From an uncultured Planctomycetota bacterium (lineage in GTDB: Bacteria > Planctomycetota > PLA2 > JAEUHO01): 64,000 bases of DNA. The stretch is taken from contig CAVVXN010000004.1 of NCBI GenBank assembly GCA_963752285.1, forward strand, positions 32,001-96,000, written 5' to 3'. Below the pieces are notes generated by a model. The model saw only the letters and a program-made list of their open reading frames with translations. It made no database searches and was not told the DNA's origin. Made by a program: the position numbers and the translations under genes. Within the stretch, counting starts at the first letter, position 1; each line of letters begins with the position of its first letter. Positions 2,119 to 61,290 of this stretch are shown here, one piece after another.

Positions 2119-3213
2119 CTACACGACCTCGCGCAGGACCGCGCCCGACGCGAAGCCCGCGCCGAACGCGACGTCCAGCTCCAGGCGCGGGCGCGGGAGC
2201 GCCCCGTTTCGCGACGCGAGGTCCGCGTACGCCAGCGGGATCGAGGCCGCGGACGTGTTCCCGTAGCGGACGATCCCGTCCGCGTACACGCGCCCGGAGG
2301 GGACGCCGAGCCGCTTCGCCACCCGCTCGATGATCCTCAGGTTCGCCTGGTGGGGGATCACGAGGTCCACGTCGCCGATCCCGTACCGGCGACCCGTCGC
2401 GGCCTCGGCCCGGTCGAGCACGGCACGGACCTCGAAGACCATCGCGTCCACCGCGGCCTGGAACACGCGCCGCCCGTCCATGCGCAGGACCTGGACCGCG
2501 CGCCGGCCGCGGCCGGGCCCGTCGAGCGGCCGCGGGCCGTCCGGTCCCGCCTCGGTGTAGAGGAGGTCGCCGTGTCGCCCGTCCGCGCCGGTGTGCGCGG
2601 CGAGGATCCCGCCCGCCGCCACGTCGCCGAGGACCACGGCGCCGGCTCCGTCCCCGAAGAGGACGCACGTGGAGCGGTCGGTCCAGTCGGCGATGTGCGA
2701 GAGCGCGTCGGCCCCGACCACGAGCGCCGCGCGGCCCTCACCGTAGCGGTGCCGCTCGAGCCACATACGGCTCCACACGTCCTCGATCGCGTACACGAAG
2801 CCCGCGCAGCCCGCCTCCACGTCCGCCGCGGCCGAGCCCGCGATCCCGAGGGCGCGCTGCACCTGCGACGCCAGGCTCGGGAGCCGGTTCCACGTGCACG
2901 TGGCCACCCGGACCTCGCCCACGTCCTTCGGAGCCACGCCCGCCGCCGCGAGCGCCTGGCGGGAGGCCTCGACCGCCATCCCGAGGATGCTCTCGTCCTC
3001 GCCGAGTACCCGGCGCGACCGGATGCCCGTGCGCCGGCGCACCCAGGCGTCGTCCGACGGCACGAAGCGCGCGAGGTCGGCGTTGCTCCAGGCCGTCGCC
3101 GGGAGGCAGGCGCCCGTGCCGAGGATGCCGATCCGGAACGCGCCGGCCGCGCCGCTGCGGGCGGGACGGGCGGGTCGGACCGCGACCCGGTCGCTCTTGC
3201 CCCGAGAGACCAT
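2119..3213 (-). CDS. fabH: 3-oxoacyl-ACP synthase III
   Basis: GILGTG, RTGIRSRR, AGCAGF (catalytic Cys), HQAN, GNTSAASIP, FGAG motifs; start at ATG 3213 chosen. Confidence 0.9.
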   Translation of the reverse strand: MVSRGKSDRVAVRPARPARSGAAGAFRIGILGTGACLPATAWSNADLARFVPSDDAWVRRRTGIRSRRVLGEDESILGMAVEASRQALAAAGVAPKDVGEVRVATCTWNRLPSLASQVQRALGIAGSAAADVEAGCAGFVYAIEDVWSRMWLERHRYGEGRAALVVGADALSHIADWTDRSTCVLFGDGAGAVVLGDVAAGGILAAHTGADGRHGDLLYTEAGPDGPRPLDGPGRGRRAVQVLRMDGRRVFQAAVDAMVFEVRAVLDRAEAATGRRYGIGDVDLVIPHQANLRIIERVAKRLGVPSGRVYADGIVRYGNTSAASIPLAYADLASRNGALPRPRLELDVAFGAGFASGAVLREVV

Positions 3214-3307
3214 GGGGGGATTCTCTCCGAAGGGGGGGCCACGAAGGCCGGCCCGGTCGCGACCGGACGCGTTCGGCCGACGCCCCCCCCGGGTAACCTC
3301 GGTCGGC

Positions 3308-4783
3308 GTGGAGCACCACCTGAGCACGCTCGGGGGCGCCTTGAACGTCCTCGTTCGCGAGGTCTTCGACGAGCTCGACCCGCAGCTCGAGGCCACGGCG
3401 CTCCTCGCCGCCCTCCCCGGGGACGAGGACGCGGGGCCCTCGTACCTGGTGACGTCCGGCGCGACGACGCGCGACCCCGAGGTCCTTCGCCCGCTCGCCG
3501 GCGCCGACGGGGCGGAGCCCGAAGGCGGGTCGGTGGTCCCGGGCGACGGGCCCGCGCGCGAGTGGGTCGCGGCCGACCGGCTGCGGCGCACGGTCGAGGA
3601 GGGGCTGCGGCGCGGCGAGGGTCCGGACGCGCTCCAGACGTTCGTCGGCGCGCCGCGCGGCCTCGGCCCGTACCTCGTCGCGCCCGCGCTCGAGCTCAAG
3701 GCCGGCATCTACCAGGCGTACTACGCGCTCCGCCGGCGGCAGGGCGAGGACGGGGCGCCGCTCGCGTCGTCGCTCCTCGACGCGGCGGTCACGGAAACGC
3801 TCCAGGCGGCCTCCGCGGCGATCTCCGACTACCGCCCGCGCGCCGACGAGTCCACCTCCGCGACCGCCGACGAGATCCTGCGCGCGGCGGGCCGCCGCCT
3901 CATGTGCGTTCCCGCGCACGCCGCGGGCTGCGTGGACGCGTCGCGGTTCTTCCAGGCGTGCGACCTGATCGCGAGCATGCGCTACGAGGGCGGCGAGGGC
4001 CACGGCCGCCTGATCGTCGCCGCGCGCGGCCACCCCGACGTCGAGGTCGTGCTGGAGTTCCACCAGCCGATCGACCTCGAGGACCGTCGCGGCGTGCGCA
4101 AGGTGCTCGAGCTCACCGGCGGCGACCTCTGCCTCCTGACGGACGCCGCGCGCGTGTTCGGGCTCGGGCGCACGACGGGTGCGTACGAGCGGCACGCGGA
4201 GAGCCTCTTCGAGGTCGAGGTGCTGGGGCACGCCACGTGGGAGCTCTCGCACGCCGATGCCGTCCTGATGCGGGTGCAGAACGGGCGCCCGCGCCTCGCG
4301 CGGAGCGAGATCGACGAGGACGAGTTTCGTGGGGGCCTCTCGCGGGCCTTCGGGCACGTCGAGCCGCGGCGCTTCGAGCGCCTGCTCGCGATCGCGATCC
4401 TGGCGATCCACCAGCGCCGCGGGACGACGGTGGTCGTGTCGGACGGCGCCCAGGCGGAGGCGCTCCGCCTCGGGAGCCAGGCCCTCAGGATCCGGCCCGT
4501 GCCGCTCTCGCCCGACACCGTCCCGCTCGTCACGGGCATCGACGGCGCCGTGCTCGTCGATCCCGAGGGCGTCTGCCACGCGATCGGCGTGATCCTCGAC
4601 GGCCGCGCGTCGCGCCGCGGCGACCCCGCCCGGGGCGCACGCTTCAACTCCGCCGTGCGGTACGTGGACGGGAGCGAGCACCGCGCGCTCGCCATCGTGA
4701 TCTCGGAGGAGGGCGGCGTGGACCTCATCGGTCCCGCCGTCGCGGCGCGGGCCCCGCCCGCCGCGAGCCCGGACACGGCGTGA
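3308..4783 (+). CDS. DisA_N/diadenylate-cyclase-like domain protein with long N-terminal (putative sensor) region
   Basis: C-terminal HQRRGTTVVV...IDGAVLVD...GVILDG...RGARFNSA...VISEEG pattern typical of divergent DAC domains; start uncertain (GTG 3308). Confidence 0.7.
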   Translation: MEHHLSTLGGALNVLVREVFDELDPQLEATALLAALPGDEDAGPSYLVTSGATTRDPEVLRPLAGADGAEPEGGSVVPGDGPAREWVAADRLRRTVEEGLRRGEGPDALQTFVGAPRGLGPYLVAPALELKAGIYQAYYALRRRQGEDGAPLASSLLDAAVTETLQAASAAISDYRPRADESTSATADEILRAAGRRLMCVPAHAAGCVDASRFFQACDLIASMRYEGGEGHGRLIVAARGHPDVEVVLEFHQPIDLEDRRGVRKVLELTGGDLCLLTDAARVFGLGRTTGAYERHAESLFEVEVLGHATWELSHADAVLMRVQNGRPRLARSEIDEDEFRGGLSRAFGHVEPRRFERLLAIAILAIHQRRGTTVVVSDGAQAEALRLGSQALRIRPVPLSPDTVPLVTGIDGAVLVDPEGVCHAIGVILDGRASRRGDPARGARFNSAVRYVDGSEHRALAIVISEEGGVDLIGPAVAARAPPAASPDTA

Positions 4784-4897
4784 CGCTCGGGGGGACGCTC
4801 CTGGACCTCGCGGACGGGGCCCGCTTCGCGATCAGGCTCGCGCCCGCGGGCGGCGGAACGCCGCGCCGCGGGCACGGCCGCGCGCAGGACGGGGTTC

Positions 4898-5950
4898 CTA
4901 CCCGTTCGCGTGCGGACAGGAGGGGCAACCGCCCTCCTTCTTCGCCGGCCTGTCCGAGGGGCACGCACCGCCGGGGCAGCCACCCGAGTTCGGGCAGCCC
5001 CCCGACTTCGGGCAGTCGCCCGACTTCGGGCAGTCGCCGCAACCGCCGCCGTCGCCGCAGTGCCCGCCGCAGTGTCCGTCGCAGTGCCCGGCGCAGCCGC
5101 CGCACGCCCCGTCGCAGCCGCCGGCGCAGGGGCAGCCCGCGCACGCGGCCTCGGCGCGCTTCGCGGCGGTCGCCATCACCTTCTCGAAGCCGTCCGTGCC
5201 GACGAGCTTGGCGAAGTCGGGGCTCGCCTTCGTGCGGGCGAGGAGCGAGGCGAGGGCGCGGGGCGGGCAGGCCTGGAAGGCCGTTTCGAGCGTGCCGTTC
5301 GCCGCGACCCCGTCGCCGAGCCGCGCGTGCACGCGCGCGAGCTCGTAGCCGAGCGCGACGTCCTTCGCGTCCGTCTCGGGGAGCGTCGCGAGGTCCGCCT
5401 TCACCGCGTCCGACTTCCCGAGCCGTGCCCACGCGAGGTCCAGCTCCACCCGGACGGACGTGTCCTTCTGGCCCTCGCGAAGGCCGTCGAGGAAGGCCGC
5501 GGCCTCCTGGTCCTTCCCCATCTCGAGCAGCGTGTCGCCCACGAACGCGGCCGTGGACGCGGTGTCGGCCTTCTCGAAGGCGGCGCGGTCGAGCGCGAGC
5601 GCGTTGTTCCAGAGCTTCGCGTGGTGATAGAAGCCGTGGAGCTGGCCCACCTCGTTCTGCCAGGCGCAGCTCGGCTCGTCGTCCCGGACGGCCTTCTCCA
5701 GGTCGAGGACGTGGCCGAGCATCTTCGCCTGCCGCGTGATCGCGGCGTCGTCCGGATGGGCGGCGGCGAGGGCCACGTACGCGTCGTGCGCCTCGACGAT
5801 CTTGCCCTGTTCGAAGAGCGCGCGCGCCTGGGCGGCCGGGTCGGTCGGCGGCGGCGAGGCCGTGTCGGCGGCGAGCAGGCTCCGGGCGCCGAGGCCCACG
5901 GCGAGCACGGCGACGAGCGCAGCGGCGAGAACGGCGAGGCGTCGGGACAT
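4898..5950 (-). CDS. Secreted helical (TPR-like) protein with Cys-rich C-terminal tail
   Basis: Signal peptide MSRRLAVLAAALVAVLAV..., alpha-helical repeats, 17 Cys in the last ~80 aa; GGAGG RBS upstream. Confidence 0.7.
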   Translation of the reverse strand: MSRRLAVLAAALVAVLAVGLGARSLLAADTASPPPTDPAAQARALFEQGKIVEAHDAYVALAAAHPDDAAITRQAKMLGHVLDLEKAVRDDEPSCAWQNEVGQLHGFYHHAKLWNNALALDRAAFEKADTASTAAFVGDTLLEMGKDQEAAAFLDGLREGQKDTSVRVELDLAWARLGKSDAVKADLATLPETDAKDVALGYELARVHARLGDGVAANGTLETAFQACPPRALASLLARTKASPDFAKLVGTDGFEKVMATAAKRAEAACAGCPCAGGCDGACGGCAGHCDGHCGGHCGDGGGCGDCPKSGDCPKSGGCPNSGGCPGGACPSDRPAKKEGGCPSCPHANG

Positions 5951-6061
5951 GGGGTCTCCTCCCTGGGTCTTGGACGGGTTCGGGACCGACGGAGTCTACG
6001 AGGGGAGGCGGCAGCCGACGTCACGACCGGGGGGACGTCGGCCCCGCCCCCCCTCGCGCCT

Positions 6062-6952
6062 ATGCTCCGCATCGTGAACGCCGATCCGGCCGATCCGTGC
6101 GATGTCGCCGCGGCGGCCCCCCGGGGGGACCCGACCGCGTGGGTGACCCACGTGGACACCCTCTTCGTCGTCGGCGCGCCCCGCAGCGGGACGACGTGGG
6201 TCCGGCGCCTGCTCCTCGACCTTCCGGGGGTCGTGGGCGGCGTCGAGTCCCACTTCTTCACCGCGCTCGGCCCGGCGCTCGTGAGCTACGACCTGACCGC
6301 GGCCTCCACACGTCGGATCGGACTCTCCCAGTACGTCCCGCGCGACGAGCTCGTGGGCGAGATCCGCCGGCTGTGGGGGCGCTGGATGGGCCCACTCGTG
6401 ACGGCCGCGCCGGACGCGCGCGTCCTCGTCGAGAAGACGCCCGGGCACGCGCTCCTCCTCGATCAGATCGTGGACGTCCTGCCCCGTTCGCGCTTCGTGC
6501 ACGTCGTTCGCGACGGACGGGCGGTCGTCGCGTCGCTCCTCGCGGCGGCCGAGGGGTGGGGGAAGGAGTGGGCGCCTCGTCGCACGCGGCACGCCGCGCG
6601 GCTCTGGGTGAAGCACGTCGAGGCCGCCCGCGCGGCGGGCGCCCGCCTCGGGCCCGAGCGGTATCTCGAGGTGCGCTACGAGTCGCTCCACGCCGACGCC
6701 GCGGCGCGGCTCCGGGAGATCGCGCGCTTCGCGGGGATCGAGGCCTCGGACGAGCAGGTCGCCCTGGCCGTCCGTCGCCACGACGCCGAGAACGTGCGCG
6801 CGGGGCAGGGGGGGGACGACTGGGCGGCCGAGCCGAAGGGGTTCCTCGGCGGGGCGACCCCGGAGGGCTGGCGTCGCCAGCTCACCTGGAGCCAGCGCGC
6901 GACCGTGTGGCGGCACGCGCGCCACGTGCTCCGGTCCCTGGGCTACCGGTGA
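6062..6952 (+). CDS. Sulfotransferase family protein
   Basis: PAPS-binding motifs GAPRSGTT, EKTP, RDGRAVVAS, RYE. Confidence 0.9.
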   Translation: MLRIVNADPADPCDVAAAAPRGDPTAWVTHVDTLFVVGAPRSGTTWVRRLLLDLPGVVGGVESHFFTALGPALVSYDLTAASTRRIGLSQYVPRDELVGEIRRLWGRWMGPLVTAAPDARVLVEKTPGHALLLDQIVDVLPRSRFVHVVRDGRAVVASLLAAAEGWGKEWAPRRTRHAARLWVKHVEAARAAGARLGPERYLEVRYESLHADAAARLREIARFAGIEASDEQVALAVRRHDAENVRAGQGGDDWAAEPKGFLGGATPEGWRRQLTWSQRATVWRHARHVLRSLGYR

Positions 6953-8757
6953 GCGCCGTGCCGAATCCCCGCGTCGGCGTTCCCAGACTCGTGCGTACCC
7001 GAATTCGCCTCGGCCTCCTCGTCGTCACCGGACTGCTCCTCGTTTCCGTGGACCTGTGGGCCGGGGACGAGCCCCCTTCGCCCGCGTCGCGGGTCTACGA
7101 CGTGGGCGCGCTCCTCGAGAGCCGGCCGGAAGGCGTGACGGGGCCGCTCGGGATCTTCCCGCGGGGCCAGGCGGCCGTGGAGCTGATCGACGAGGCGACG
7201 GGGACCGGGCTCTCGAACGGGGCCGTGCCGCCCGTCCCCTTCCTCGACGCGGCGACGCTCACCGAGCTCGTGCACACCTTCGTGACCGACCACGAGGGCT
7301 CGGCCTCGCTCGACGGGAGGTGGCTCCACGTCGAGGGACCGCCAGAGGTCCAGGCGCGCGCCGGGGCGTTCCTCGCCGGGCTCTGGCGTCTGGCGTCGCG
7401 GCGGGTGGACGTCGAAGCGGAGCTCCTCCGCGTGCCCGCGGAGGCGGTCGCGAAGCTCGACCCTGCGCTCCTCGCCGCCGTGCTCCGGGGGCGGCTCGAT
7501 CCCGACGAGGCGGCGGCGCTCCGCCGCGCCGCGAGCGCGCCGCGCCGCGGCACCGCCCGCGTGGCGCCGGGTCGCGTCGCGGTGGTCGGCGAGGTGGAAC
7601 GCGTCCGGTACGTCGCGGACTACAGCGTGGAGATCGCGCAGGCGTCGATCGTCGGGGACCCGGACGTCGAGGACCTCGATACCGGGTGGCGCGTCGAGGC
7701 GCGACCGCTTCCGCTCCTCGACGGGCGCGTGCTCTTGGAGGCCCACGTCGAGGCCGCGTCCCGCGACGGCCCGATGCGACGACTCGACCTCGGGGTCGCG
7801 CCCTTCGGAACGCTCGACATGCCGTCCTGCCGCGTCCTCCGCGCGTCGTGCCGCACGGTCACGGACGGCGTCGCGAGCCGCGTCCTCGCGCTCCGCGAGG
7901 CGTCCGGCGACCTGGTCGCGTTCCTCCTCCGCGCGACGCCGACGCCCGCCCCCGCCCCGACGACCGCGGGGTCCGCGCTGCCGTTCGATCGTCTGGACCT
8001 CCTCGCGCTCACGAGCGACCCGCGCGCGCTCGTCTTCGTGACCGTGCCCGACGACGGCTTCGCGCCGCGCCTCCTCTTGCGTGCGCCGGACCTCCTCGCG
8101 CCCGCGTCGGCGGACGGCCTCGCGTCGCGCCTCGAGGCGGCCGCGCCGGAGGCGTTCTCGGACGACGAGAGCGGCGTCGAGGCGCTGGGCGACGCCGTCT
8201 ACGTGCGCGGGAGCCCGGCGGCCCGCGCCGCGGCGCGCGCGCGCGCCCAGGAGCTCGAGGGGCGGGCGACGGGCGGCGCGCGGGTGACGCTCCGCCTCCG
8301 CGCCCGGAGCGCCGACGGCGCGCCCACGCTCCTCGCGGAGGCGGGCGCCGACCTCGCCGACGGGATCCCCGCGTCCCTCGTCCTCGGCCGCGAGCGCGCG
8401 TACCTCGCGGACTGGGACGTGGAGGTGGCGCAGGAGGCCCGGGTGGGCGACCCGATCGTGAAGACTCTCTTCGACGGCCTCGAGGTGGGCCTTCGCGCGA
8501 CCGCGACGCCGATCGAGGGAACGCACGCGCTGTCGCTCGAGCTGCGTTTCGTCACGGCATCGGACGCGCTCGCGGCCCGACCGACGGAGAACGAGTGCAC
8601 GGGCGACGTCGAGGTCCCCGACGCGCGGGAGGCGTTCGTCAGCGACGACCTCGTCCTGGAAGCGGGCCGGCCGACCGTGCGCGACGTAGGCACCCTCGCC
8701 GATGGCCGGCGACTGGAGCTCGAGATCGCGGTCACGCCGGAGCCGGAAGCACGTTGA
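6949..8757 (+). CDS. Secreted protein with two degenerate secretin-like (type II/III secretin C-terminal-like) domains
   Basis: Signal peptide; two internal repeats YVADYSVEIAQASIVGDP...GWRVEARP and YLADWDVEVAQEARVGDP...GLEVGLRAT; GTG start overlaps the upstream stop. Confidence 0.55.
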   Translation: MSAVPNPRVGVPRLVRTRIRLGLLVVTGLLLVSVDLWAGDEPPSPASRVYDVGALLESRPEGVTGPLGIFPRGQAAVELIDEATGTGLSNGAVPPVPFLDAATLTELVHTFVTDHEGSASLDGRWLHVEGPPEVQARAGAFLAGLWRLASRRVDVEAELLRVPAEAVAKLDPALLAAVLRGRLDPDEAAALRRAASAPRRGTARVAPGRVAVVGEVERVRYVADYSVEIAQASIVGDPDVEDLDTGWRVEARPLPLLDGRVLLEAHVEAASRDGPMRRLDLGVAPFGTLDMPSCRVLRASCRTVTDGVASRVLALREASGDLVAFLLRATPTPAPAPTTAGSALPFDRLDLLALTSDPRALVFVTVPDDGFAPRLLLRAPDLLAPASADGLASRLEAAAPEAFSDDESGVEALGDAVYVRGSPAARAAARARAQELEGRATGGARVTLRLRARSADGAPTLLAEAGADLADGIPASLVLGRERAYLADWDVEVAQEARVGDPIVKTLFDGLEVGLRATATPIEGTHALSLELRFVTASDALAARPTENECTGDVEVPDAREAFVSDDLVLEAGRPTVRDVGTLADGRRLELEIAVTPEPEAR

Positions 8758-10316
8758 CGCGCGGGCGCGCGATGGCGGGGATCTTCCTCCTCGGGGCGGG
8801 CTTCGCCCTCGGGCCGCGGACCCTGCGTGCCGACGACGCGCCCGACCTGGCCCCGTGGCGCACGCTCGCGAGCGAGCCGCTCGACGTGGACCTCGACGCC
8901 GGGGACCTCGCGGAACGGACGAGCCTCGGCTACGCGGAGGCGTTCGCCCCGCCCGACCCCCTCCGGGACCCGGACGGGAGCCGCGCGGCGTGGGCACGTC
9001 CCTTCGCGACCGCCGTCGAGGCCTGGATCGAGGACCGGGTCCCCGCGGTGGACGACGCGGCGCGCCGGCGTCTGGCAGCCGACCTCCTGACCCGGATCGA
9101 CGTGGACGTGGAGGTCGAGGGCGCCGGCGTCCGCTGGCGGGGGACCGCGTCGGCGGCGCCGGGCCACGGGGTGGCCCTCGCGACCACCACGCGGCGGGCC
9201 TTCGTGACCGACGTCGACCCGGAGCTCGCGTGCGACAACTCCGGCGGGTTCGCCCCGTCCGCGCTGGGGAATCCCGTGGTGCGTCCGCTCGAGGACGGTG
9301 TGCGGGTCTTCGTGTGCCCGCACCTCGTCGCGGGCGGCCGGGTCCTCTTGGAGGCCGTCGTGGCGGCCGGCCGCTTCGAGCGACCCGTCCCCGCCGTCCC
9401 GACGGAGGCGCGCTTCCTCGGCACGCTCGACCTCGCGCGTTACGAGGGCGCGCTCGCGCGGATGTCCGGGACCGTCGGTCCCCGCGAGGCGCTCGAGACG
9501 AGCTTCTCCGCGGGGGCGCGGCGCCTCGCCGTCCACGTGACGGCCCGCGTCCGCGCGCCGGATCCCGGTGTTCCCGACGGTCCGCTCCGCGCGCTCGACG
9601 CGAGCGCGCTGGCCGCCTCCCCCATGGACGCGGTCCTCCTCCCCGCGACCCGGGGAGGGCTCACGCCGCGGCCGGGGACGGTCTCGTGGGAGCCGACGCC
9701 GCCGGCATGGCCGCCGGAGCGGCTGCTCGCCGCGCTTCGGCGCGCGCTCCCGGACGCGGACCTGGAGGTCTCGGCGCGCGGCCGCGTGTTCGTCGCGGGC
9801 GACGAGGCGACGATCGGGCGCGCGCGCGCCGCGCTCGCGGCGTGGGAGTCCCCGATCCTCCGAGGCGCCACGGTGCGCCTCGCGCTGCGCGCGGGAGACG
9901 ACGTCGTGGGCCGGGGCACGCTCGCGGCGCGCTCGGGCGACGTGGCGGTTCTCCGTCTGGGCGCCGATCGCGCGGCGATCGTGGACAGCGACCCCGAGGT
10001 GGGGTGAAGCATCCATATCGCGGACCCCCGGGTCGGGGTCCTCTTCGACGGCTGGCGGATCGTCGCGCGTCCCGAGGTCGGGCCGGACGCGCGCACGGTC
10101 CGCCTCGGGCTCGACGTCGAGCGACGCGCGATCCGGGCGGTGGAGACGCGGCGCGGGAACGGCGCGGCGCACGGCGTCCTCCACCTCCCGGACGAACGAG
10201 TCCTCTCCCGGCGCGCGGACGCGGTGCTCGCCCGAGACGACGTCCTCTCGTTGGAGCTCGGTTCGGACGAGGAGGGGCGTCCCCTCCGTCTCGAGGTCCG
10301 CGCGGGAGTCCGCTGA
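8754..10316 (+). CDS. Paralogous secretin-like protein with in-frame TGA at 10005-10007 (candidate selenocysteine)
   Basis: The frame stays open for 102 codons after the TGA (SIHIADPRVGVLFDGWRIVARPEVGPDARTVRLGLDVE...GRPLRLEVRAGVR*) and completes the second repeat; SECIS-like hairpin at 10022-10041. Confidence 0.65.
10022..10041 (+). promoter_or_regulatory. Putative bacterial SECIS hairpin
   Basis: GGACCCC-CGGGTC-GGGGTCC, 7-bp stem starting 14 nt after the TGA. Confidence 0.55.
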
Positions 10317-13670: not shown

Positions 13671-13907
13671 ATGAAGATCCGCATCGAGTACTGCGCCGTC
13701 TGAGGCTACGAGCCGAAGGCCGTCGGTCTGACGGCCGTGCTCCTCGAGAACTTGAAGCAGCGGGTCGCGTCGCTGGAGCTGGTCCCCTCCGGTGGAGGGT
13801 GTTTCGAGGTCACGGTGGACGGCGAGCGGATCTGGTCGAAGCTCGAGACGGGCGAGTTTCCCGAGGAGAACGCGATCCTCGACGACGTGGCCGCGCGGGC
13901 CCGATGA
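13671..13907 (+). CDS. Rdx (SelW/SelT/SelH) family selenoprotein, CxxU motif
   Basis: MKIRIEYCAV-U(TGA 13701-13703)-GYEPKA...LVPSGGGCFEVTVDGERIWSKLETGEFPEE; GGAGG RBS; missed by the ORF track. Confidence 0.9.
13718..13736 (+). promoter_or_regulatory. Putative bacterial SECIS hairpin
   Basis: GGCCGTC-GGTCT-GACGGCC, perfect 7-bp stem 14 nt after the UGA with G first in the loop. Confidence 0.75.
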
Positions 13908-15763: not shown

Positions 15764-15972
15764 GGCGTACCCCCCGGGCCACGACGCGCCCGCCGCTCGG
15801 CGTTCCGGGCGCGTCCCCCGAGGCGCCGGTTCCCGGTCCCGCGTTGCGGGGGCGCCGGGGCGGACGGCGGTACGCGAACCGGCGTACGCGCGCGGCGGCG
15901 GGCGGCGTTGCCCGCCGCCCGGGCCCCGTGTCGAATGAGCCGCGCCGCCTTGGCCCGGAGCCCGAGCTCACC

Positions 15973-16533
15973 GTGACCCGTTCGATCGCTTTCGCCCTCG
16001 TGGTCGGCTTCGCCCTCGCCGCGTGCGGGGGCGGAGGTGGAGGCGGGAGCGGAGGAGGCGGGCTCCCGACCGAGGTCGTCGCGGACTTCCACCTCCCGGA
16101 CGTCAACCCGAACAGCGCGACTTTCGGCGGGGAGGTATCGCCGCGCGATCACCTCGGGCGCGTGTCGGCCTGGTACTTCGGGCACGCGACCTGAAGCTAC
16201 TGTTCGAGCCAGTTCGGCTACCTGGACCAGATGGCGCAGGAGCTCGCGGCGGAGACGCCGCCGGCCCGCGTGGACCTTCTCGGCGTGAACGCGGTCGGGG
16301 AGGAGAGCGGGAACGCCTCGATCACCGACGGGCGGTCCATCCCCTGGCTCCAGGACGCGTCGTCGGAGAACGTGTGGACGTCGTGGGACGTCACGTACCG
16401 CGACGTCGTGATCCTCGGCGGCGCGAATCGACGGAACACGGTCTACAACCTGACCGAGCACGACCTCTCCGACCCCGCGAGCTACGCCGAGCTGAAGGCG
16501 CTCCTCCACGCCGCGGCCGCGGCGCTCCCCTGA
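15973..16533 (+). CDS. Thioredoxin-fold (redoxin/AhpC-TSA-like) lipoprotein with in-frame TGA, UxxC motif (selenoprotein)
   Basis: Lipobox LAAC; DFHLPDVNPNS...YFGHAT-U(TGA 16192-16194)-SYC; ORF-track frames 15844..16194 and 16231..16533 join in frame. Confidence 0.8.
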
Positions 16534-16709: not shown

Positions 16710-17315
16710 ATGCGGCGCAGATCTTTTCAGTCGCTCCTGGGGCTCGCGCTCGGTGTGGCCGTGATCGCGGCCTGTGGCGGGGCGAGCATCCCGTTCCAGA
16801 ACCGCGTGGACGAGCTCGCCGCCGACGTGGCCGCGCTCACGACACGCGTTCAGACGCTCGAGACGGAGAACGCGACCCTGGCGGGCGAGGTCCAGACGCT
16901 CTCGCAGGACCTGCAGCAGCACGAGGCCGATCCCGACGCGCACCACCCCGCCGACGCGGGCGGCGTCTCCGGGCTCGGGCTCAACTACATCATCGCGCTG
17001 CAGGGCATCTTCCCCTCCCGCGCCCTGGAGGCCCCGGCCGAGGGATCGAGCGACCTCCAGATCCCGCCGCCGCAGACGTCGTTCCTCGACCCGTACCTGG
17101 GCGGGATCGTCCTCTTCGCCGGGAACTTCGCGCCGCAGGGGTGGGCCTTCTGCGACGGGCAGATCCTGTCCATCGCGGCGAACCAGGCGCTCTTCTCGCT
17201 CCTCGGCACCACGTACGGCGGGAACGGGCAGACCACGTTCGCGCTGCCGGACCTCCGCGGCCTCACGCCGGTCCACCCCTCCGCCACGGTGCCGCTCGGT
17301 GGCCACACCCCCTGA
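16710..17315 (+). CDS. Lipoprotein with coiled coil and phage tail-collar domain
   Basis: IAAC lipobox; heptad segment; FAGNFAPQGWAFCDGQILSI..NQALFSLLGTTYGGNGQTTFALPDLRG collar motif. Confidence 0.8.
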   Translation: MRRRSFQSLLGLALGVAVIAACGGASIPFQNRVDELAADVAALTTRVQTLETENATLAGEVQTLSQDLQQHEADPDAHHPADAGGVSGLGLNYIIALQGIFPSRALEAPAEGSSDLQIPPPQTSFLDPYLGGIVLFAGNFAPQGWAFCDGQILSIAANQALFSLLGTTYGGNGQTTFALPDLRGLTPVHPSATVPLGGHTP

Positions 17316-30420: not shown

Positions 30421-32385
30421 ATGGTCGGCGCCTCGTCCCTACGCATCGGCATCGACACGGGGGGTACCTTTACCGACGGCGTCCTCGTCGAGGGGCGGCG
30501 GCGCGCGTCCGTGAAGGTGCCGTCCACGCCCGACGACCCCGCGCGGGCCGTTCTCGCGGCCGTGGAGGCCCTCCTGGGGCGTCGGCGGGGCCTTCCCCGC
30601 GATGTCCGGGTCCACCACGGCTCGACGGTCGCCACGAACACCGTCTTGACAAGTCGGGGCGCCCGGGTCGTGTTCGTCACGACCACCGGGTTCGAGGACG
30701 TGCTGCACCTCGCGCGGGGCACGCGCTCGGACCTCCACGCGCTCTGGCCGTCGAGGCCCGCCCCGCTCGTGCCGCGGGACCGCCTCGTGGGCGTCCCGGA
30801 GCGCACCGGCGCCGACGGGCGCGCGGTCCTCGCGCTGACCGACCCGGCGCTGAGCGAGGTCGCCCGCCGGGTGGTCGCCCTGGGGCCCGAGGCGGTCGCG
30901 GTTTCGCTCCTCCACGCGGTCCGCGCGCCGCGGCACGAGCGCCGCGTCGTCCGCCGGCTCGTCGCGGCCCTGGCGGGGAGCGGGGTGAGCGTGCACGCGG
31001 GCACGGACGTGTCGGCGGACCCCCGTGAGGCGGAGCGCGGCGCGACCGCGGTTCTCGACGCGTACGTGGCGCCGGCGATCCGGTCGTATGTCGCGCGCCT
31101 CTCGCGCGCGCTCCCCCGGGGCGCGCTCACGATCATGCGGTCGGACGGCGGCCGGATGGGAGCCCGGGAGGCGTGCCGGCATCCCGTCCGGACGCTCCTC
31201 TCGGGACCGGCGGGCGGCGTGGCCGCGGCCGCCCGCGTCGCCGCGCGGCTCGGACTCCAACGCGCCCTGTCGTTCGACGTGGGCGGGACGAGCACCGACG
31301 CGTGCTGGATCGAGGGCGAGGACCTGCCCGTCGGCGGCACGGTCCGGGTCGGCGACCACGAGGCGTCGGTCCCCGGGCTCCCGCTCGAGACGGTCGGAGC
31401 CGGCGGGGGGAGCGAGGTCTGGATCGACCCGGGCGGGGCCCTCCGGGTCGGACCCGGCAGCGCCGGCGCCGACCCGGGCCCCGCCTGCTACGGCCGGGGC
31501 GGGCCCTTCACGTTGACCGACGCATGGCTCGTGCTCGGCCGTCTTCCTCCGGCGCTCCTCGGCGGCGCGTTCCCCCTCGACGCCGCCGCCGCCCACCGGG
31601 CGGCCGACGCCCTGGCGCGCCGCGCCGGGGTCCCGGTCCGGACGCTGGCTCGCGGGGCGGTCGAGGTCGCGGCGACGACGACGGCGCGCCTCCTCTCCCG
31701 GGCGTCGGTCGCGCGGGGAAAGGACCCGCGCGGCGCCCACCTCGTCGCGTTCGGCGGCGCGGGGCCGACGCTCGCCGCCGAGACCGCGGAGCGTCTGGAT
31801 CTCCGGGGCGTGGTCGTCCCGCCCGAGCCGGGCGCGCTCGCCGCGTGGGGCGCGCTCGTGGCGCCGCTTTGCGCCGACCAGAGCGCGGTGGTCCTGGGCA
31901 AGGACGTGGGACGCTTCGCGGGTCTCGCGAGGCCGCTGGCGCGCGCGGTCCGCGCCGCCCTCGCGAAGCAGGGAGCGCGTCGTCCGACGGTCCGGGCCGA
32001 GATCGACGCGCGGTACGCCGGCCAGGCCTTCGAGGTGACCGTGCCCCTCGGCGCGCGCTGGCGGGCCGCGTTCGACGCCGCCCACGCCGCGCGCTACGGC
32101 TTCGAGGACCCCGCCCGACCCGTCGAGGTCGTGCGTCTCCGCGTCCGCGGAACCGGCCACGAGGACGGGCCGGTCCGGCCCGCCGCGCGTCGCGCGGTCC
32201 ACGCGGCGTCGCGTCCGATCGTGCCCCGCGCGGGCCACCCGGTCCCGCGTGCGGACCTCGCGCCCGGCGCGCGCGTCGTAGGCCCCGCCGTGATCGTGGA
32301 GACGACCGCGACGACCTGGGTCCCGCGTGGCTGGCGGGCGACCGTCGGCGCGGCGGGCGACCTCGTCTTGGAGCGAAGCCGATGA
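30421..32385 (+). CDS. Hydantoinase A / 5-oxoprolinase subunit
   Basis: GIDTGGTFTD, HGSTVATN, SGPAGG, DVGGTSTD, GAGGGS, SAGADPGPACYGRGG. Confidence 0.92.
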   Translation: MVGASSLRIGIDTGGTFTDGVLVEGRRRASVKVPSTPDDPARAVLAAVEALLGRRRGLPRDVRVHHGSTVATNTVLTSRGARVVFVTTTGFEDVLHLARGTRSDLHALWPSRPAPLVPRDRLVGVPERTGADGRAVLALTDPALSEVARRVVALGPEAVAVSLLHAVRAPRHERRVVRRLVAALAGSGVSVHAGTDVSADPREAERGATAVLDAYVAPAIRSYVARLSRALPRGALTIMRSDGGRMGAREACRHPVRTLLSGPAGGVAAAARVAARLGLQRALSFDVGGTSTDACWIEGEDLPVGGTVRVGDHEASVPGLPLETVGAGGGSEVWIDPGGALRVGPGSAGADPGPACYGRGGPFTLTDAWLVLGRLPPALLGGAFPLDAAAAHRAADALARRAGVPVRTLARGAVEVAATTTARLLSRASVARGKDPRGAHLVAFGGAGPTLAAETAERLDLRGVVVPPEPGALAAWGALVAPLCADQSAVVLGKDVGRFAGLARPLARAVRAALAKQGARRPTVRAEIDARYAGQAFEVTVPLGARWRAAFDAAHAARYGFEDPARPVEVVRLRVRGTGHEDGPVRPAARRAVHAASRPIVPRAGHPVPRADLAPGARVVGPAVIVETTATTWVPRGWRATVGAAGDLVLERSR

Positions 32386-33991
32386 GCGAGGCCACGGGAC
32401 GCGCGGTGCAGCTCGGGCTCCTTCGCGAGCTCCTCGAGAGCGTGGCGGAGGAGATGGCCGAGGTCGCCGTCCGCACCGCGGTGTCGTCGAACATCAAGGA
32501 GCGGCGGGACCTCAGCGCCGCGGTGTTCGACGGGCACGGCACGATGGTCGCCCACGCCGCGCACATCCCCGTACACCTCGGCGCGATGCCGCTCTCCGTC
32601 CGGGCCGTTCTCGACCGCGTGCCGCTCGCGCGGGGCGACGTGGCGCTCGTGAACGACCCCTACGCGGGGGGACGCACCTCCCCGACGTGACCGCGGTCGC
32701 GCCCGTCTTCGCCCGCGGCGGTCGGAAGCCCGCGTTCGCGGTGGCCGTGCGCGCCCACCACGCCGACATCGGAGGCGCCGCGCCCGGCTCGATGGCGCCG
32801 CAGTCGGACGTCTTCGCGGAGGGGCTGCGGATCCCGCCGGTCCGCTGGATCCGCGGCGGCGTCGAGGACCCCGACCTGACGCGCCTCCTCCTCGCGAACG
32901 TGCGCGACGAGGCGGAGCGCCGCGCGGACCTCGCGGCGCAGGTGGGCGCGCTCGCGTGCGGCGTCCGGCGTCTCGACGCCCTCGGCCGGCGCGAGGGCGG
33001 GCTCGGCGTCCTCGCGCGCCGCGCCCGTTCGCTCGTGCACTACGCGCGGAAGATGGCCGGCCACGCGCTCTCGGCGCTCCCCGACGGCGCGGCGCGCGTG
33101 CGCCTCCGGCTCGAGGTCGAGACCCTCGAAGGCGGGCCGGCCGGGCTCAAGCTCGCGCTCTCGAAGCGGGGCGACCGCCTCCACGTGGACTTCGCGGGCA
33201 CGTCGGGGCCCGTGCGAGACGGCCTGAACGCACCGGCCGCCGTCACGCGAAGCGCCGTGTACTACCTGCTCGGCTGCCTCGCCCCGCCCGACACGCCCGC
33301 GAACGACGGTCTCCTCGCGTGCGCGACGATCGCGATCCCCGGGGGCTCGTTCCTCGACGCGCGGCCGCCGCTGGCCGTCGCGGGTGGCAACGTCGAGACG
33401 AGCCAGCGCGTCGTGGACGCGCTCTGGCTCGCCGCGGGCCGGCTCTGGCCCGACCGCGTGCCTGCGCCGGGCGCGGGCACCATGTCGAACTGGACGTTCG
33501 GTCCGGTGCCCGGCGGCCCCGTGTTCCCGTCGTACTACGAGACGGTGCCGGCCGGCGCGGGCGGCGGTCCGGCGGGACCGGGCGCGGACGCGATCCAGCA
33601 GCACATGACCAACACGCGTTCGACGCCGGTCGAGGTGCTCGAGTCGCGCTGGCCGGTGCGTGTCGAGCGCCACGCGATCCGCGCCGTGAGCGGCGGGCTC
33701 GGCCGCGCGCGGGGGGGCGACGGCGTCTCGAAGAGTGTGCGTTTCCTCGCGCCGGCCGTGGTGTCGCTCCTGATGACGCGGCACGAGGAGCCGCCGCCCG
33801 GCGCGGCGGGCGGCCGCGCGGGACAGCCGGGACGGGCTACCCTCACGTCGGGGGGACGGACCCGGGTGCTCGAACCGCGCGGACGGGTCGTCGTCGAGGC
33901 CGGCGACGTGCTGACGGTCGAGACGCCCGGTGGCGGCGGATGGGGGCGGCTGGGGGCGCGCCGCGTTGGAGACGCCGCCGACGGCCGGTAA
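32382..33991 (+). CDS. Hydantoinase B / 5-oxoprolinase subunit (one frameshift near 32670, likely assembly error)
   Basis: SSNIKERRDLS, HIPVHLG, NDPYAGG|THLPD split at a G-run missing one base, HHADIGG, GNVETSQR, GGGGWG. Confidence 0.85.
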
Positions 33992-58797: not shown

Positions 58798-59140
58798 GTG
58801 CGCTCCGGCTGGGGATTGCCCGACTGCGGCGAGCCGCGTGCCACGTCCGGCCGCGACCGAGGAGCCTGGAGGACAAAGGTCGCGCGGGAGCGCAGGACCC
58901 TAGTCCCCCAGCGCCCCGAGACCCATCCTCCGTTCCCAGGCCCGGAACGCGTTCCCGTTCGGACGGCGCGCTCGGCGGTGGGGAGTCGTCCGGTTCCCGA
59001 CGGTTCGCGTCCCGGCTAGGATTCCGGTGCCGGGAGTTCGGTTTGGCACCCGCCTCGCTCGTGGCCGATCGCTCGGGGGCGAGGCAGGACGCCGTAGCGT
59101 CCCGGCGAGAAAATGACACCCGCGAACGGAGCGGGTGACG

Positions 59141-61114
59141 ATGTCACCCGAGGAGAGGCCCATCGAACCCGGAGCGTCGCTCCCGCTGGACGCCCACGCG
59201 TGGCACGTGGTGGAGGCGGTCGTCGCTTCGGTGACCGACTACGCGGTGTTCGTGCTCGACCCTCAAGGCCACGTGCTCACGTGGAACGCCGGCGCGGAAC
59301 GAATGAAGGGATACACGCGGTCCGAGATCCTCGGGTCCCACTTCTCGCGCTTCTACCCGCCGCCGGAGAAGGCGCGCCGCGTCCCCGACCACGAGCTCGA
59401 GGTCGCAGCCCGCGAGGGCCGGTTCGAGGACGAGGGCTGGCGGCTCCGCAAGGACGGGTCGGCCTTCTGGGCGAGCGTCGTCATCACCGCGATCCGCGAC
59501 GAACGCGGCGCGCTCGCGGGGTACCTGAAGATCACTCGGGACCTCACGGCTCGTCGCGCCCAGGAACAGGCCCTCGCGGAGAGCGAGGAGCGGTTCCGGC
59601 TCCTCCTCGAGGGCGTGGCCGACTACGCGATCTACATGATCGACGTGGACGGTCGCGTGATGAGCTGGAACTCCGGGGCGGAGCGCATCAAGGGCTACTC
59701 CGCCCACGAGGTCCTCGGCCGCAACTGGTCGATGTTTCATCCGCCCGAGGCGGTGGAGGCCGGCCAGCCGGAGGACATCGTCGAGCAGGCGCGGGTGGTC
59801 GGGCGGGCTGAGGACGAGGGCTGGCGCATGCGCCGCGACGGCACGCGGTTCTGGGCGAGCTCCATCCTGACGCGACTCCTCGACGGGGGCGGCCGGCTCC
59901 GCGGGTTCGCCGAGGTCACGCGCGATTTGACCGAGCGGCGGCGGGCGAAGGCCCTCGAGGAATCCGGTCGCCGCACGAACGAGTTCCTCGCCATGCTGTC
60001 GCACGAGCTCCGAAACCCGATGGCGCCCATCCGAAACGCCGTGGCGCTGATGGCCGAGCGGGAGGTCTCCGACCCCATGATCGCGTGGGCGTGCGAGGTG
60101 ATCGAGCGACAGACGCAACTCCTCGGCCGGCTCGTGGACGACCTGCTGGACATCAGCCGCGTGACGCTCGGGAAGATCCGGCTGGAACGCGTCGGGCTCG
60201 ACCTCGTCGAGGTCGCGAGGAGCGCGGTGGAGACGGTACGCCCCCTCGTCGAGACGCACCGCCACCGGCTGGAGGTGATCCTGCCCCCCGAACCCCTCTT
60301 CGTGCTCGGGGACGGGACCCGGCTCGTCCAGGCGGTGGTGAACCTGCTCACGAACGCCGCGAAGTACACGCCCGACGGCGGAGAGGTCCGCCTGACGGTG
60401 GCGCAGGAGGGGAGCGACGCGGTGCTGCGCGTGCGGGACACGGGTGTCGGGATGTCCCGCGACCAGATCGCGCGCGCGTTCGACCTCTTCGTGCAGGGGG
60501 ACCGGAGCCTCGACCGGACCGACGGCGGCCTCGGGGTCGGCCTCACGCTGTCGCGCCGACTGGTCGAGATGCATGGTGGCACCCTGCTCGCCTCGAGCGA
60601 CGGGCCCGGCACGGGGACGGAGTTCACGATTTGGCTTCCGCTTGCCGAAGTCGAGGCGTCCACGTCCGGCGCTTCGGCGGCCGGCGCCGGGGCGCCGGCC
60701 GCCGACAGCCCGGCGGGTGGTGGTGCGTGCGCGCTCTCCGGGCGTGTGCTCGTCGTGGACGACAACGAGGACGCCGCCGAGAGCACGGCGATGCTGCTCC
60801 GCATGTGGGGCCTCGAGGTCGAGACCGCGCACGACGGGGTCCAGGGACTCCAGCTCGCCGCGAGCTTCAAACCGCGATACGTGATGCTCGACCTGGGCCT
60901 GCCGCGTATGGACGGCTACGAGGTCGCACGTCGCATTCGGCAGACGCCCGGGCTCGGGGAGAACGTCCTGCTCGTCGCGCTGACGGGCTACGGCCAGCCC
61001 GAGGACCTCGAAGGCACGCGCCGGGCGGGGTTCGACCACCATCTCACGAAGCCGGTGGACCCGGAGCTTCTCCAGCGGCTGCTGCTCGACGCGGGCGGCG
61101 TGCCGACCGCGTGA
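59141..61114 (+). CDS. PAS-PAS hybrid histidine kinase with receiver domain
   Basis: Two PAS units (DYA...WN.GAER.KGY; EGWR.R.DG..FWA); LSHELRNP; GGLGVGL; REC (LDLGLP). Confidence 0.93.
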   Translation: MSPEERPIEPGASLPLDAHAWHVVEAVVASVTDYAVFVLDPQGHVLTWNAGAERMKGYTRSEILGSHFSRFYPPPEKARRVPDHELEVAAREGRFEDEGWRLRKDGSAFWASVVITAIRDERGALAGYLKITRDLTARRAQEQALAESEERFRLLLEGVADYAIYMIDVDGRVMSWNSGAERIKGYSAHEVLGRNWSMFHPPEAVEAGQPEDIVEQARVVGRAEDEGWRMRRDGTRFWASSILTRLLDGGGRLRGFAEVTRDLTERRRAKALEESGRRTNEFLAMLSHELRNPMAPIRNAVALMAEREVSDPMIAWACEVIERQTQLLGRLVDDLLDISRVTLGKIRLERVGLDLVEVARSAVETVRPLVETHRHRLEVILPPEPLFVLGDGTRLVQAVVNLLTNAAKYTPDGGEVRLTVAQEGSDAVLRVRDTGVGMSRDQIARAFDLFVQGDRSLDRTDGGLGVGLTLSRRLVEMHGGTLLASSDGPGTGTEFTIWLPLAEVEASTSGASAAGAGAPAADSPAGGGACALSGRVLVVDDNEDAAESTAMLLRMWGLEVETAHDGVQGLQLAASFKPRYVMLDLGLPRMDGYEVARRIRQTPGLGENVLLVALTGYGQPEDLEGTRRAGFDHHLTKPVDPELLQRLLLDAGGVPTA

Positions 61115-61290
61115 CCCGTGCGCCGCGGCGTCGCGGATCCGCCCGCTTCACCCGTCGCGCGACGTGCGGAGCCAGCCCACCCCGAGCGCGAGCAACGCGA
61201 GCGCGAGGGCCAAGGCGCCTGAGAACGCGAGGTACACCAGCGCGTTCGGCCGGATGGCGTCGGGGCTCGGGACCGAGAGGAGGTCGCGAC

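Follow-up and report, generated by a model that had tools for sequence, protein, structure and literature searches.

A predicted selenoprotein family with a secretin-like fold in Planctomycetota

Introduction

Selenocysteine (Sec) in bacteria occurs overwhelmingly in redox enzymes, most of which have thioredoxin-like folds, as described in a 2026 catalog of 119 prokaryotic selenoprotein families (PMC13188914). The closest entries in the same catalog are predicted β-barrel selenoproteins of the cell envelope, namely the GSU2204 family (MtrB/PioB-like, NF041027) and a TonB-dependent receptor with an FCYXU motif (NF049945), and the rows of its Table 1 examined here include no secretin-like entry (PMC13188914). 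Sec-using Planctomycetes are on record according to the available text of an earlier study (PMC4807772). Here, we analyze a gene in 64,000 nucleotides of DNA from an uncultured Planctomycetota bacterium (assembly GCA_963752285.1, contig CAVVXN010000004.1, positions 32,001 to 96,000 of the forward strand; hereafter, the window, with position 1 as its first letter). On evidence from sequence comparison and structure modeling, this gene, at 8754..10316 (+), very probably contains a UGA codon that is recoded as Sec in a protein of secretin-like fold.

The closest described proteins by fold and by profile comparison are the secretins (PF00263), which include BfpB of type IVb pili, InvG of type III secretion systems (T3SS), GspD/PulD of type II secretion systems (T2SS), PilQ and the phage protein pIV. 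The protein studied here shares with them predicted export, long β-hairpins and the VG.D ... G..L....P pattern that frames the first gate hairpin. Unlike secretins, it scores under the thresholds of Pfam and TIGRFAM, contains a tandem of two secretin-like domains in a single chain, lacks a counterpart of residues 297-352 of BfpB, is paired with a paralog without T2SS, T3SS or type IV pilus genes nearby, and carries Cys and Sec at its hairpin tips; no N0 domain was detected in it. The GSU2204 family and the FCYXU receptor, as cataloged, resemble it in being predicted outer membrane or envelope selenoproteins outside the thioredoxin-fold enzymes, but they differ from it in fold and family, and it matches neither NF041027 nor NF049945 at E ≤ 1. 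A third comparison is provided by two selenoprotein genes in the same window. One of them, an Rdx/SelW-like gene, shares the recoding device, i.e. an in-frame UGA followed 14 nt later by a hairpin with a GGU-containing loop. Both encode small proteins of the thioredoxin fold whose redox motif is CxxU or UxxC, whereas Sec in the secretin-like protein stands alone in the sequence (EVG-U-S), at a β-turn of a channel-type fold.

Results

The coding signal continues through an in-frame TGA

The secretin-like gene encodes two tandem repeats and has two candidate starts: TTG at 8754, which lies in a TTGA overlap with the stop of the upstream gene, and an in-frame ATG at 8772, from which a public gene call (411 aa) begins. 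The frame is interrupted by a TGA at 10005..10007 (+) and then runs for 102 further codons to a terminal stop, TGA 10314-10316. Read through from ATG 8772, the product has 514 aa with Sec at residue 412 (U412), and its N-terminus resembles a signal peptide.

Because the very high G+C content of the window (GC fraction 0.68-0.78) makes an open frame weak evidence, we tested the coding signal across the TGA. The GC fractions at third (0.87-0.93) and second (0.50-0.53) codon positions are unchanged through 10008-10316; past ~10316, the codon-position pattern switches to the frame of the next gene, which encodes an FHA-GGDEF protein and begins with ATG 10421. Codon log-odds, trained on clear genes of the window, were 0.44 per codon upstream of the TGA and 0.42 downstream. 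Thus, as the initial annotation of this DNA had proposed, the frame beyond the TGA in the middle of the second repeat completes the domain, with equal coding signal on both sides. The gene (8754/8772-10316) most likely encodes a single exported protein of ~514 aa and not a truncated product of 411 aa.

In a window-wide scan, TGA triplets with coding signal on both sides were found only at 10005, 13701, 16192 and 61150 (-). The TGA at 61150 (-), with coding-like composition on both sides, is probably an antisense shadow of the PAS histidine kinase gene at 59126-61111 (+), and NCBIfam has no family for the frame around it.

Homologs have TGA or Cys at the same position

A word-indexed search returned only the 411-aa gene call of the window itself and one metagenomic protein of 520 aa (P0004), which aligns through to the C-terminus (35% identity over 434 residues, E 3e-43) with a Cys opposite the UGA. 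An exhaustive HMMER search gave 51 matches at E ≤ 1e-3. Twelve of these, including the window's own gene call, stop at query residue 410 or 411 and end in ...EVG, or in ...EVA in the case of P0015. We aligned 25 sequences and recorded the state at the UGA column. Apart from the query with U (1 row), 11 rows have Cys in the context EVGC[YFW]xxI[AG]DP, 11 rows are proteins that end there, one row (P0033) begins just after the column, and one row (P0018) is unalignable at this position. In other words, all 11 homologs in this alignment that span the UGA column have Cys. All 12 Sec-form gene calls found in public protein sets end at the UGA; hence, the family is mis-annotated wherever it was found. 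The public records for four named Sec-form gene calls read "hypothetical protein".

To examine the site at the DNA level, we scanned genomes, one per species, for related loci and obtained 13 pattern matches, six of which were confirmed. All six loci are in metagenome-assembled genomes of Planctomycetota. The identical codon is TGA in four of them (L001, L002, L003 and L006) and TGC in the other two (L004 and L005). Past this column, the frame stays open for 104 codons in L002, for 105 in L003 and in L006, and for 68 up to the contig end in L001; the two Cys forms run for 104 and 102 codons. The 102 residues after the TGA in the window share 34-40% identity with their counterparts in the Sec loci (E 2e-10 to 4e-12), and for residues 101-411 of the window protein the identity to the same loci is 31.5-38%. 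The homologs with TGA or Cys at this column that the initial annotation had asked for are thus present, with TGA in four of six loci and Cys in 11 of 11 proteins, and the downstream part, which it had considered might be decaying, is conserved to the same degree as the upstream part.

These data bear directly on the possibility that a nonsense mutation arose here recently, by one change from TGC to TGA, or that the assembly is in error, in which case the gene would be a pseudogene or a misread gene. Cys codons in the window are mostly TGC (153 versus 12 TGT) and therefore one base from TGA, and the assembly has at least one likely indel, with Hydantoinase_B split at a G-run near 32655-32665. 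However, the same TGA is present in four other genomes, and the encoded proteins are only 31-40% identical, which rules out contaminant copies of one sequence. Moreover, 11 other clusters end at the same column, conservation downstream equals that upstream, and the hairpin and the synonymous-codon conservation described below are specific to the Sec forms. A TGA kept at one codon over such distances, together with equal downstream constraint, argues that the gene is neither a pseudogene nor the result of an assembly error. This explanation is largely refuted, and we assign it a negligible probability. As an observation on its own, the Hydantoinase_B/oxoprolinase gene at 32373-33988 (+) lies in two overlapping frames, which looks like a one-base indel, whether from an assembly error or a real frameshift, and is relevant to the quality of the assembly.

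In a second scenario, the TGA is a conserved true stop in a split gene, with a 411-aa N-terminal protein and a separately started C-terminal piece of ~100 aa. P0033, a public gene call of 101 aa, begins with MHIADP... directly past the column, and gene callers yield both pieces. Against this stands that the codons after the TGA are AGC and then ATC or GTC in the window and the four TGA loci, with neither a start codon nor ribosome-binding spacing conserved. The stop is TGA in five of five cases seen as DNA, never TAA or TAG, and is always aligned to Cys; the break would hit the turn of a β-hairpin, between paired strands; and the RNA hairpin is found in the TGA forms only. We consider a split gene extremely unlikely and recoding of the TGA the better reading of the same alignments.

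In a tree of the shared N-terminal part, nine Sec forms cluster with a Shimodaira-Hasegawa-like approximate likelihood ratio test (SH-aLRT) support of 86, while two Sec forms are in a second pair. The tree needs at least two state changes, and its terminal branches have a length of ~1 substitution per site. Judged from the sequences, this is a small family whose members have either Sec or Cys at the site and which, in these searches, is found only in Planctomycetota.

A hairpin follows the TGA in Sec forms and is absent from Cys forms

A hairpin of the bacterial Sec insertion sequence (bSECIS) type, GGACCCC / CGGGUC / GGGGUCC, with a 7-bp stem and an energy of -14.9 kcal/mol, lies at 10022..10041 (+) within the codons for D-P-R-V-G-V. 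It begins 14 nt after the TGA; its apical loop is 21 nt from the UGA and has G at position 2, again followed by G. The Rdx/SelW-like gene has a hairpin (GGCCGTC/GGTCT/GACGGCC) that likewise begins 14 nt after its TGA at 13701, so that the hairpin first noticed in the window is indeed as described and at the offset of the Rdx hairpin. [quoted passage not shown] By a hand check, all five TGA genes conform to these constraints.

Among these five genes, the window and L003 have 7-bp stems with CGGGUC loops, L001 has a 7-bp stem with a GGUC loop, and L002 has a 6-bp stem with an AGGU loop; thus, four of five stems have 6-7 bp. The stem in L006 is interrupted, with 3+4 bp around a C/C mismatch and a GGGU loop. 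All five loops have G-G at the start or after one base and are 21-22 nt from the UGA. The hairpin energies range from -11.7 to -14.9 kcal/mol in the TGA genes. By contrast, the values for the two Cys genes are only -2.5 and -2.0 kcal/mol, and neither has a stem of more than 4 bp over the equivalent stretch. Between L003 and the window, one C-G pair in the stem is replaced by a compensatory U-A pair. At the protein level, a Gly at U+10 is present in five of five Sec forms and absent from Cys forms, and its GGG codon pairs with the CCC of a Pro codon. Three codons, AGC for the Ser after U, CCC and GGG, are shared unchanged by all five TGA genes, while window-wide AGC accounts for 26% of Ser codons, CCC for 44% of Pro codons and GGG for 27% of Gly codons. 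Hairpins of such geometry (stem of at least 7 bp, loop of 4-7 nt with GGT, 10-20 nt after the triplet) occur at 400 of 127,860 positions (0.31%).

Concerning the residue after the site, all five TGA genes have AGC (Ser) directly after Sec, and the Cys forms have an aromatic residue (Y, F or W). The Ser codon may be needed as context for Sec decoding or for the hairpin tip.

Two further selenoprotein genes lie close by

Two genes 3.7 and 6.2 kb from the secretin-like gene belong to curated selenoprotein families. The first (13671..13907 (+)) is the Rdx/SelW-like gene with a CxxU motif and its TGA at 13701-13703; it matches PF10262 with 74.8 bits (E 6e-21) and TIGR02174 with 69.3 bits. The second (15844..16533 (+), start uncertain), which the initial annotation had not listed, encodes a TUGYCR-motif selenoprotein of thioredoxin fold with its TGA at 16192-16194. 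It matches NF053656.1 with 223 bits (cut-off 100; E 1.3e-66), reads "WYFGHAT-U-SYC" (UxxC), has an N-terminus resembling a lipoprotein signal and has no match in Pfam. These two genes are independent evidence for Sec decoding in the source genome.

The same genes speak to the idea that the UGA is read through as an ordinary residue (Trp, Cys or Gly) by a near-cognate tRNA, a suppressor or an alternative code. That Sec machinery was not found in the 64-kb window would fit this idea. However, all 11 homologs that span the column have Cys there and neither Trp nor Gly, the hairpin agrees with the bSECIS constraints, and genes of two curated selenoprotein families, one with a CxxU and one with a UxxC motif, lie within a few kb. 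An alternative genetic code with TGA as a general sense codon was rejected because TGA is the stop of 32 of the 40 complete strong genes in the window. Incorporation of an ordinary residue is thus very unlikely, and we favor incorporation of Sec.

The protein is predicted to consist of two secretin-like domains

We built an AlphaFold2 (AF2) model of the full protein from the 25-row alignment. The model (predicted local distance difference test score (pLDDT) 84.1; predicted template modeling score (pTM) 0.84) is nearly all β and consists of two similar halves with very long hairpins. Domain 1 (~residues 108-262; 9093..9557 (+)) has a long β-hairpin with strands 134-153 and 163-185, and domain 2 (~residues 365-513; 9864..10310 (+)) has one with strands 392-411 and 414-436. 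U412 is at the turn between the two strands of the second hairpin. The turn that follows strand 134-153 holds Cys154 (TGC at 9231..9233 (+)), which is part of the repeat-1 motif E[LIV]ACDNSGG, is invariant in an 11-row alignment and, from the model and the alignments, marks the tip of the hairpin that corresponds to the Sec hairpin.

With the full model as query against the Protein Data Bank (PDB), the first Foldseek match was BfpB (9u5s; E 7e-6, probability 1.00), followed by GspD, ExeD, InvG, pIV and PilQ. The TM-scores of the full model are low (0.2-0.3), and many secretins were matched at probability 0.97-1.00. For repeat 2, we built a separate model from a natural Cys-form fragment (pLDDT 85); secretins occupy 21 of its best 22 Foldseek rows (probability 0.80-1.00, TMq up to 0.51). 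In profile comparisons, family profiles match BfpB in repeat 2 with E 0.0059 (profile 374-492, chain 366-484) and in repeat 1 plus the end of the N3 domain with E 3e-7; both domains defined in the model thus have a BfpB profile match. In addition, a language-model search for look-alikes returned Atlas clusters bearing PF00263. The Foldseek and profile matches support the secretin-like fold suggested in the initial annotation.

Searches against family models gave nothing above threshold. Neither the Sec protein (at E ≤ 10) nor the upstream paralog has a match in Pfam, TIGR02519 scored 13.7-20.4 bits against a cut-off of 250, and NCBIfam had no family at E ≤ 1 for P0005, P0006 and P0036, with MshL matches below threshold as the only ones in the family.

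The two profile alignments agree in placing the Cys/Sec column between the "VG.D" and "G..L....P" motifs of secretins, where the inner barrel has its first long hairpin. For InvG, this hairpin (GATE1) is described as tipped by a tight turn with Gly, and the subunits' tips jointly form the lumen barrier (PMC6155069). From the BfpB alignment and this description of InvG, we infer that the Sec hairpin corresponds to the GATE1 hairpin; the BfpB alignment serves as the bridge, since the paper on BfpB gives no residue numbers for the gate.

The two repeats and the upstream paralog

Directly 5' of the Sec gene lies a gene for a paralog of the same two-repeat architecture (P0036, 602 aa, start GTG; 6949..8757 (+)) with Gln at both hairpin-tip columns. 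By BLAST, the Sec protein and this paralog are 31% identical over 402 residues (E 2e-12), and the ...EGRPLRLEV C-terminus of the Sec protein aligns with ...DGRRLELEI of the paralog, as had been noted from inspection. The four repeat strings from which the UGA had originally been placed opposite a Cys are all present: DVDPELA-C-DNS and DSDPEVG-U-SIH in the Sec protein, DYSVEIA-Q-ASI and DWDVEVA-Q-EAR in the paralog. The proposed alignment of the UGA with the Cys of the sister repeat also holds, in that BLAST pairs repeat 2 with repeat 1 of a homolog and places C(U) on C (E 0.005).

A paralog of ~580-600 aa with Gln at both tip columns is directly 5' of the Sec or Cys gene in all six related loci. 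A synteny comparison of the window and the six loci gave no other conserved neighbors. In the window, an open reading frame (ORF) with a sulfotransferase domain (5234-6952), the paralog gene and the Sec gene are chained by stop/start overlaps, GTGA at 6949-6952 and TTGA at 8754-8757; these overlaps suggest translational coupling. The sulfotransferase is absent beside the gene pair in the other six loci.

Several other neighbors were recorded. The window (2771-4780 (+)) and one related locus (L002, 11896-13200 (-)) both have, within a few kb of the secretin-like pair, a gene for a diadenylate cyclase protein with DACNG and DACNH sensor domains. In L004, two large genes without a Pfam family (4839-6890 and 6912-8621 (+)) lie 3' of the Cys-form gene; they were considered as paralogs of the secretin-like proteins and rejected (BLAST E > 2). 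Further downstream in the window, an isolated gene for a phage tail collar protein (16725-17312 (+); PF07484, E 4e-29) adjoins an ABC-2 transporter operon.

Discussion

Based on the data reported here, we conclude that the gene at 8754..10316 very probably encodes a selenoprotein, and the claim made for it at the outset is borne out by the conserved TGA and the Sec/Cys pair, the conservation of the downstream part, the hairpin in the TGA forms and the two selenoprotein genes nearby. The analyses show a recoding signature, a Sec/Cys pair, the fold class and the position of the site at a hairpin turn. We regard it as a genuine selenoprotein family, apparently one that has not been described. In the available text of the Global Ocean Sampling (GOS) study, only a fusion of a Prx-like protein with a "distant Secretin_N" domain is mentioned (PMC2398784). 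The main texts of the deep-Sep and BSepDB papers mention neither secretins nor Planctomycetes, and no secretin-like selenoprotein appeared in the titles and abstracts of the matches listed in a literature search, although supplements could still list the family.

Several observations weigh against recoding in a secretin-like protein. Concerning recoding, the stop was seen as DNA for four of the 11 other truncated clusters, and TGA is inferred for the remaining seven. The genes selA, selB and selD were not found among the 52 ORFs scanned in the window, and there is no tRNA-Sec in it; an Rfam scan of the window matched only tRNA. Consequently, the Sec machinery is inferred solely from the other selenoprotein genes. 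The hairpin also has to be read with care. A 56-nt fold is no more stable than shuffled sequences (z +1.08; 171 of 200 shuffles are equally or more stable), a hairpin of at least 6 bp follows six of the 853 TGA triplets, as expected by chance (6.06 expected from a positional rate of 0.71%), and covariation in the hairpin is not significant (five sequences, one compensatory pair; 216-254 of 500 shuffles reach the observed value). Moreover, the hairpin overlaps conserved codons and, therefore, constraints on RNA and protein are partly confounded. Because the number of TGA triplets with a hairpin equals chance and the fold is no better than that of shuffles, the hairpin alone proves nothing; the evidence draws its weight from how TGA forms differ from Cys forms and from conserved synonymous sites, not from the hairpin as such.

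Concerning the kinship to secretins, the Pfam Secretin family is unmatched, with a best score of 13.4 bits in the paralog P0029 against a cut-off of 27.5. The profile alignment skips residues 297-352 of BfpB, which we take to be the segment in contact with the outer membrane (outer barrel, lip and amphipathic loop); since this segment is unmatched, the membrane-contacting region may be missing from the family. Genes for a T2SS, T3SS, type IV pilus or filamentous-phage export apparatus were not found near any of the seven loci (flanks of up to 6 kb). Finally, P0015, an inferred Sec form, is without the repeat-1 Cys, which argues against an obligatory intramolecular pair of Cys154 and Sec412.

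How might Sec function in such a protein? We outline a mechanism by analogy with secretins, which form rings of 12-17 subunits with a double-walled barrel and a central gate. The UGA at 10005-10007 is very probably decoded as Sec by means of a bSECIS hairpin inside the coding sequence. The exported protein would oligomerize like a secretin, perhaps together with the upstream paralog. In the resulting ring, the tandem domains would place the tips with Cys154 and Sec412 side by side near the channel axis, where Sec might bond reversibly with Cys154 or with the Sec of a neighboring subunit (Se-S or Se-Se). Alternatively, the hairpin tips could form a soft-metal site. A selenenylsulfide or diselenide lock would form and open faster than a disulfide, and the selenium link or the metal site would lock the gate or sense its state. 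A secretin-type ring in which the tips meet, and in which a Sec link or metal site has a role in redox or gating, is a tentative suggestion that we regard as improbable as it stands. The more specific proposal is that the tips of the GATE1-like hairpins meet at the channel axis and that the Sec residues, by themselves or in alternation with the Cys of repeat 1, are joined in a ring by Se-S or Se-Se bonds or build a chalcogen-metal site, as a covalent, redox-switchable lock on an envelope channel; it is unlikely and more speculative.

If the selenoprotein assignment is true, the use of selenium in the cell envelope would be widened and a redox-controlled gate would become possible. The family would also define a tandem-domain relative of secretins in Planctomycetota to which no known secretion system is attached and in which, going by the inferred alignment, Sec is located where true secretins close the pore. 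Should the lock reading be true as well, the protein would be the first secretin with a redox gate and also the first selenoprotein whose Sec works in gating or as a structural element instead of in enzyme catalysis.

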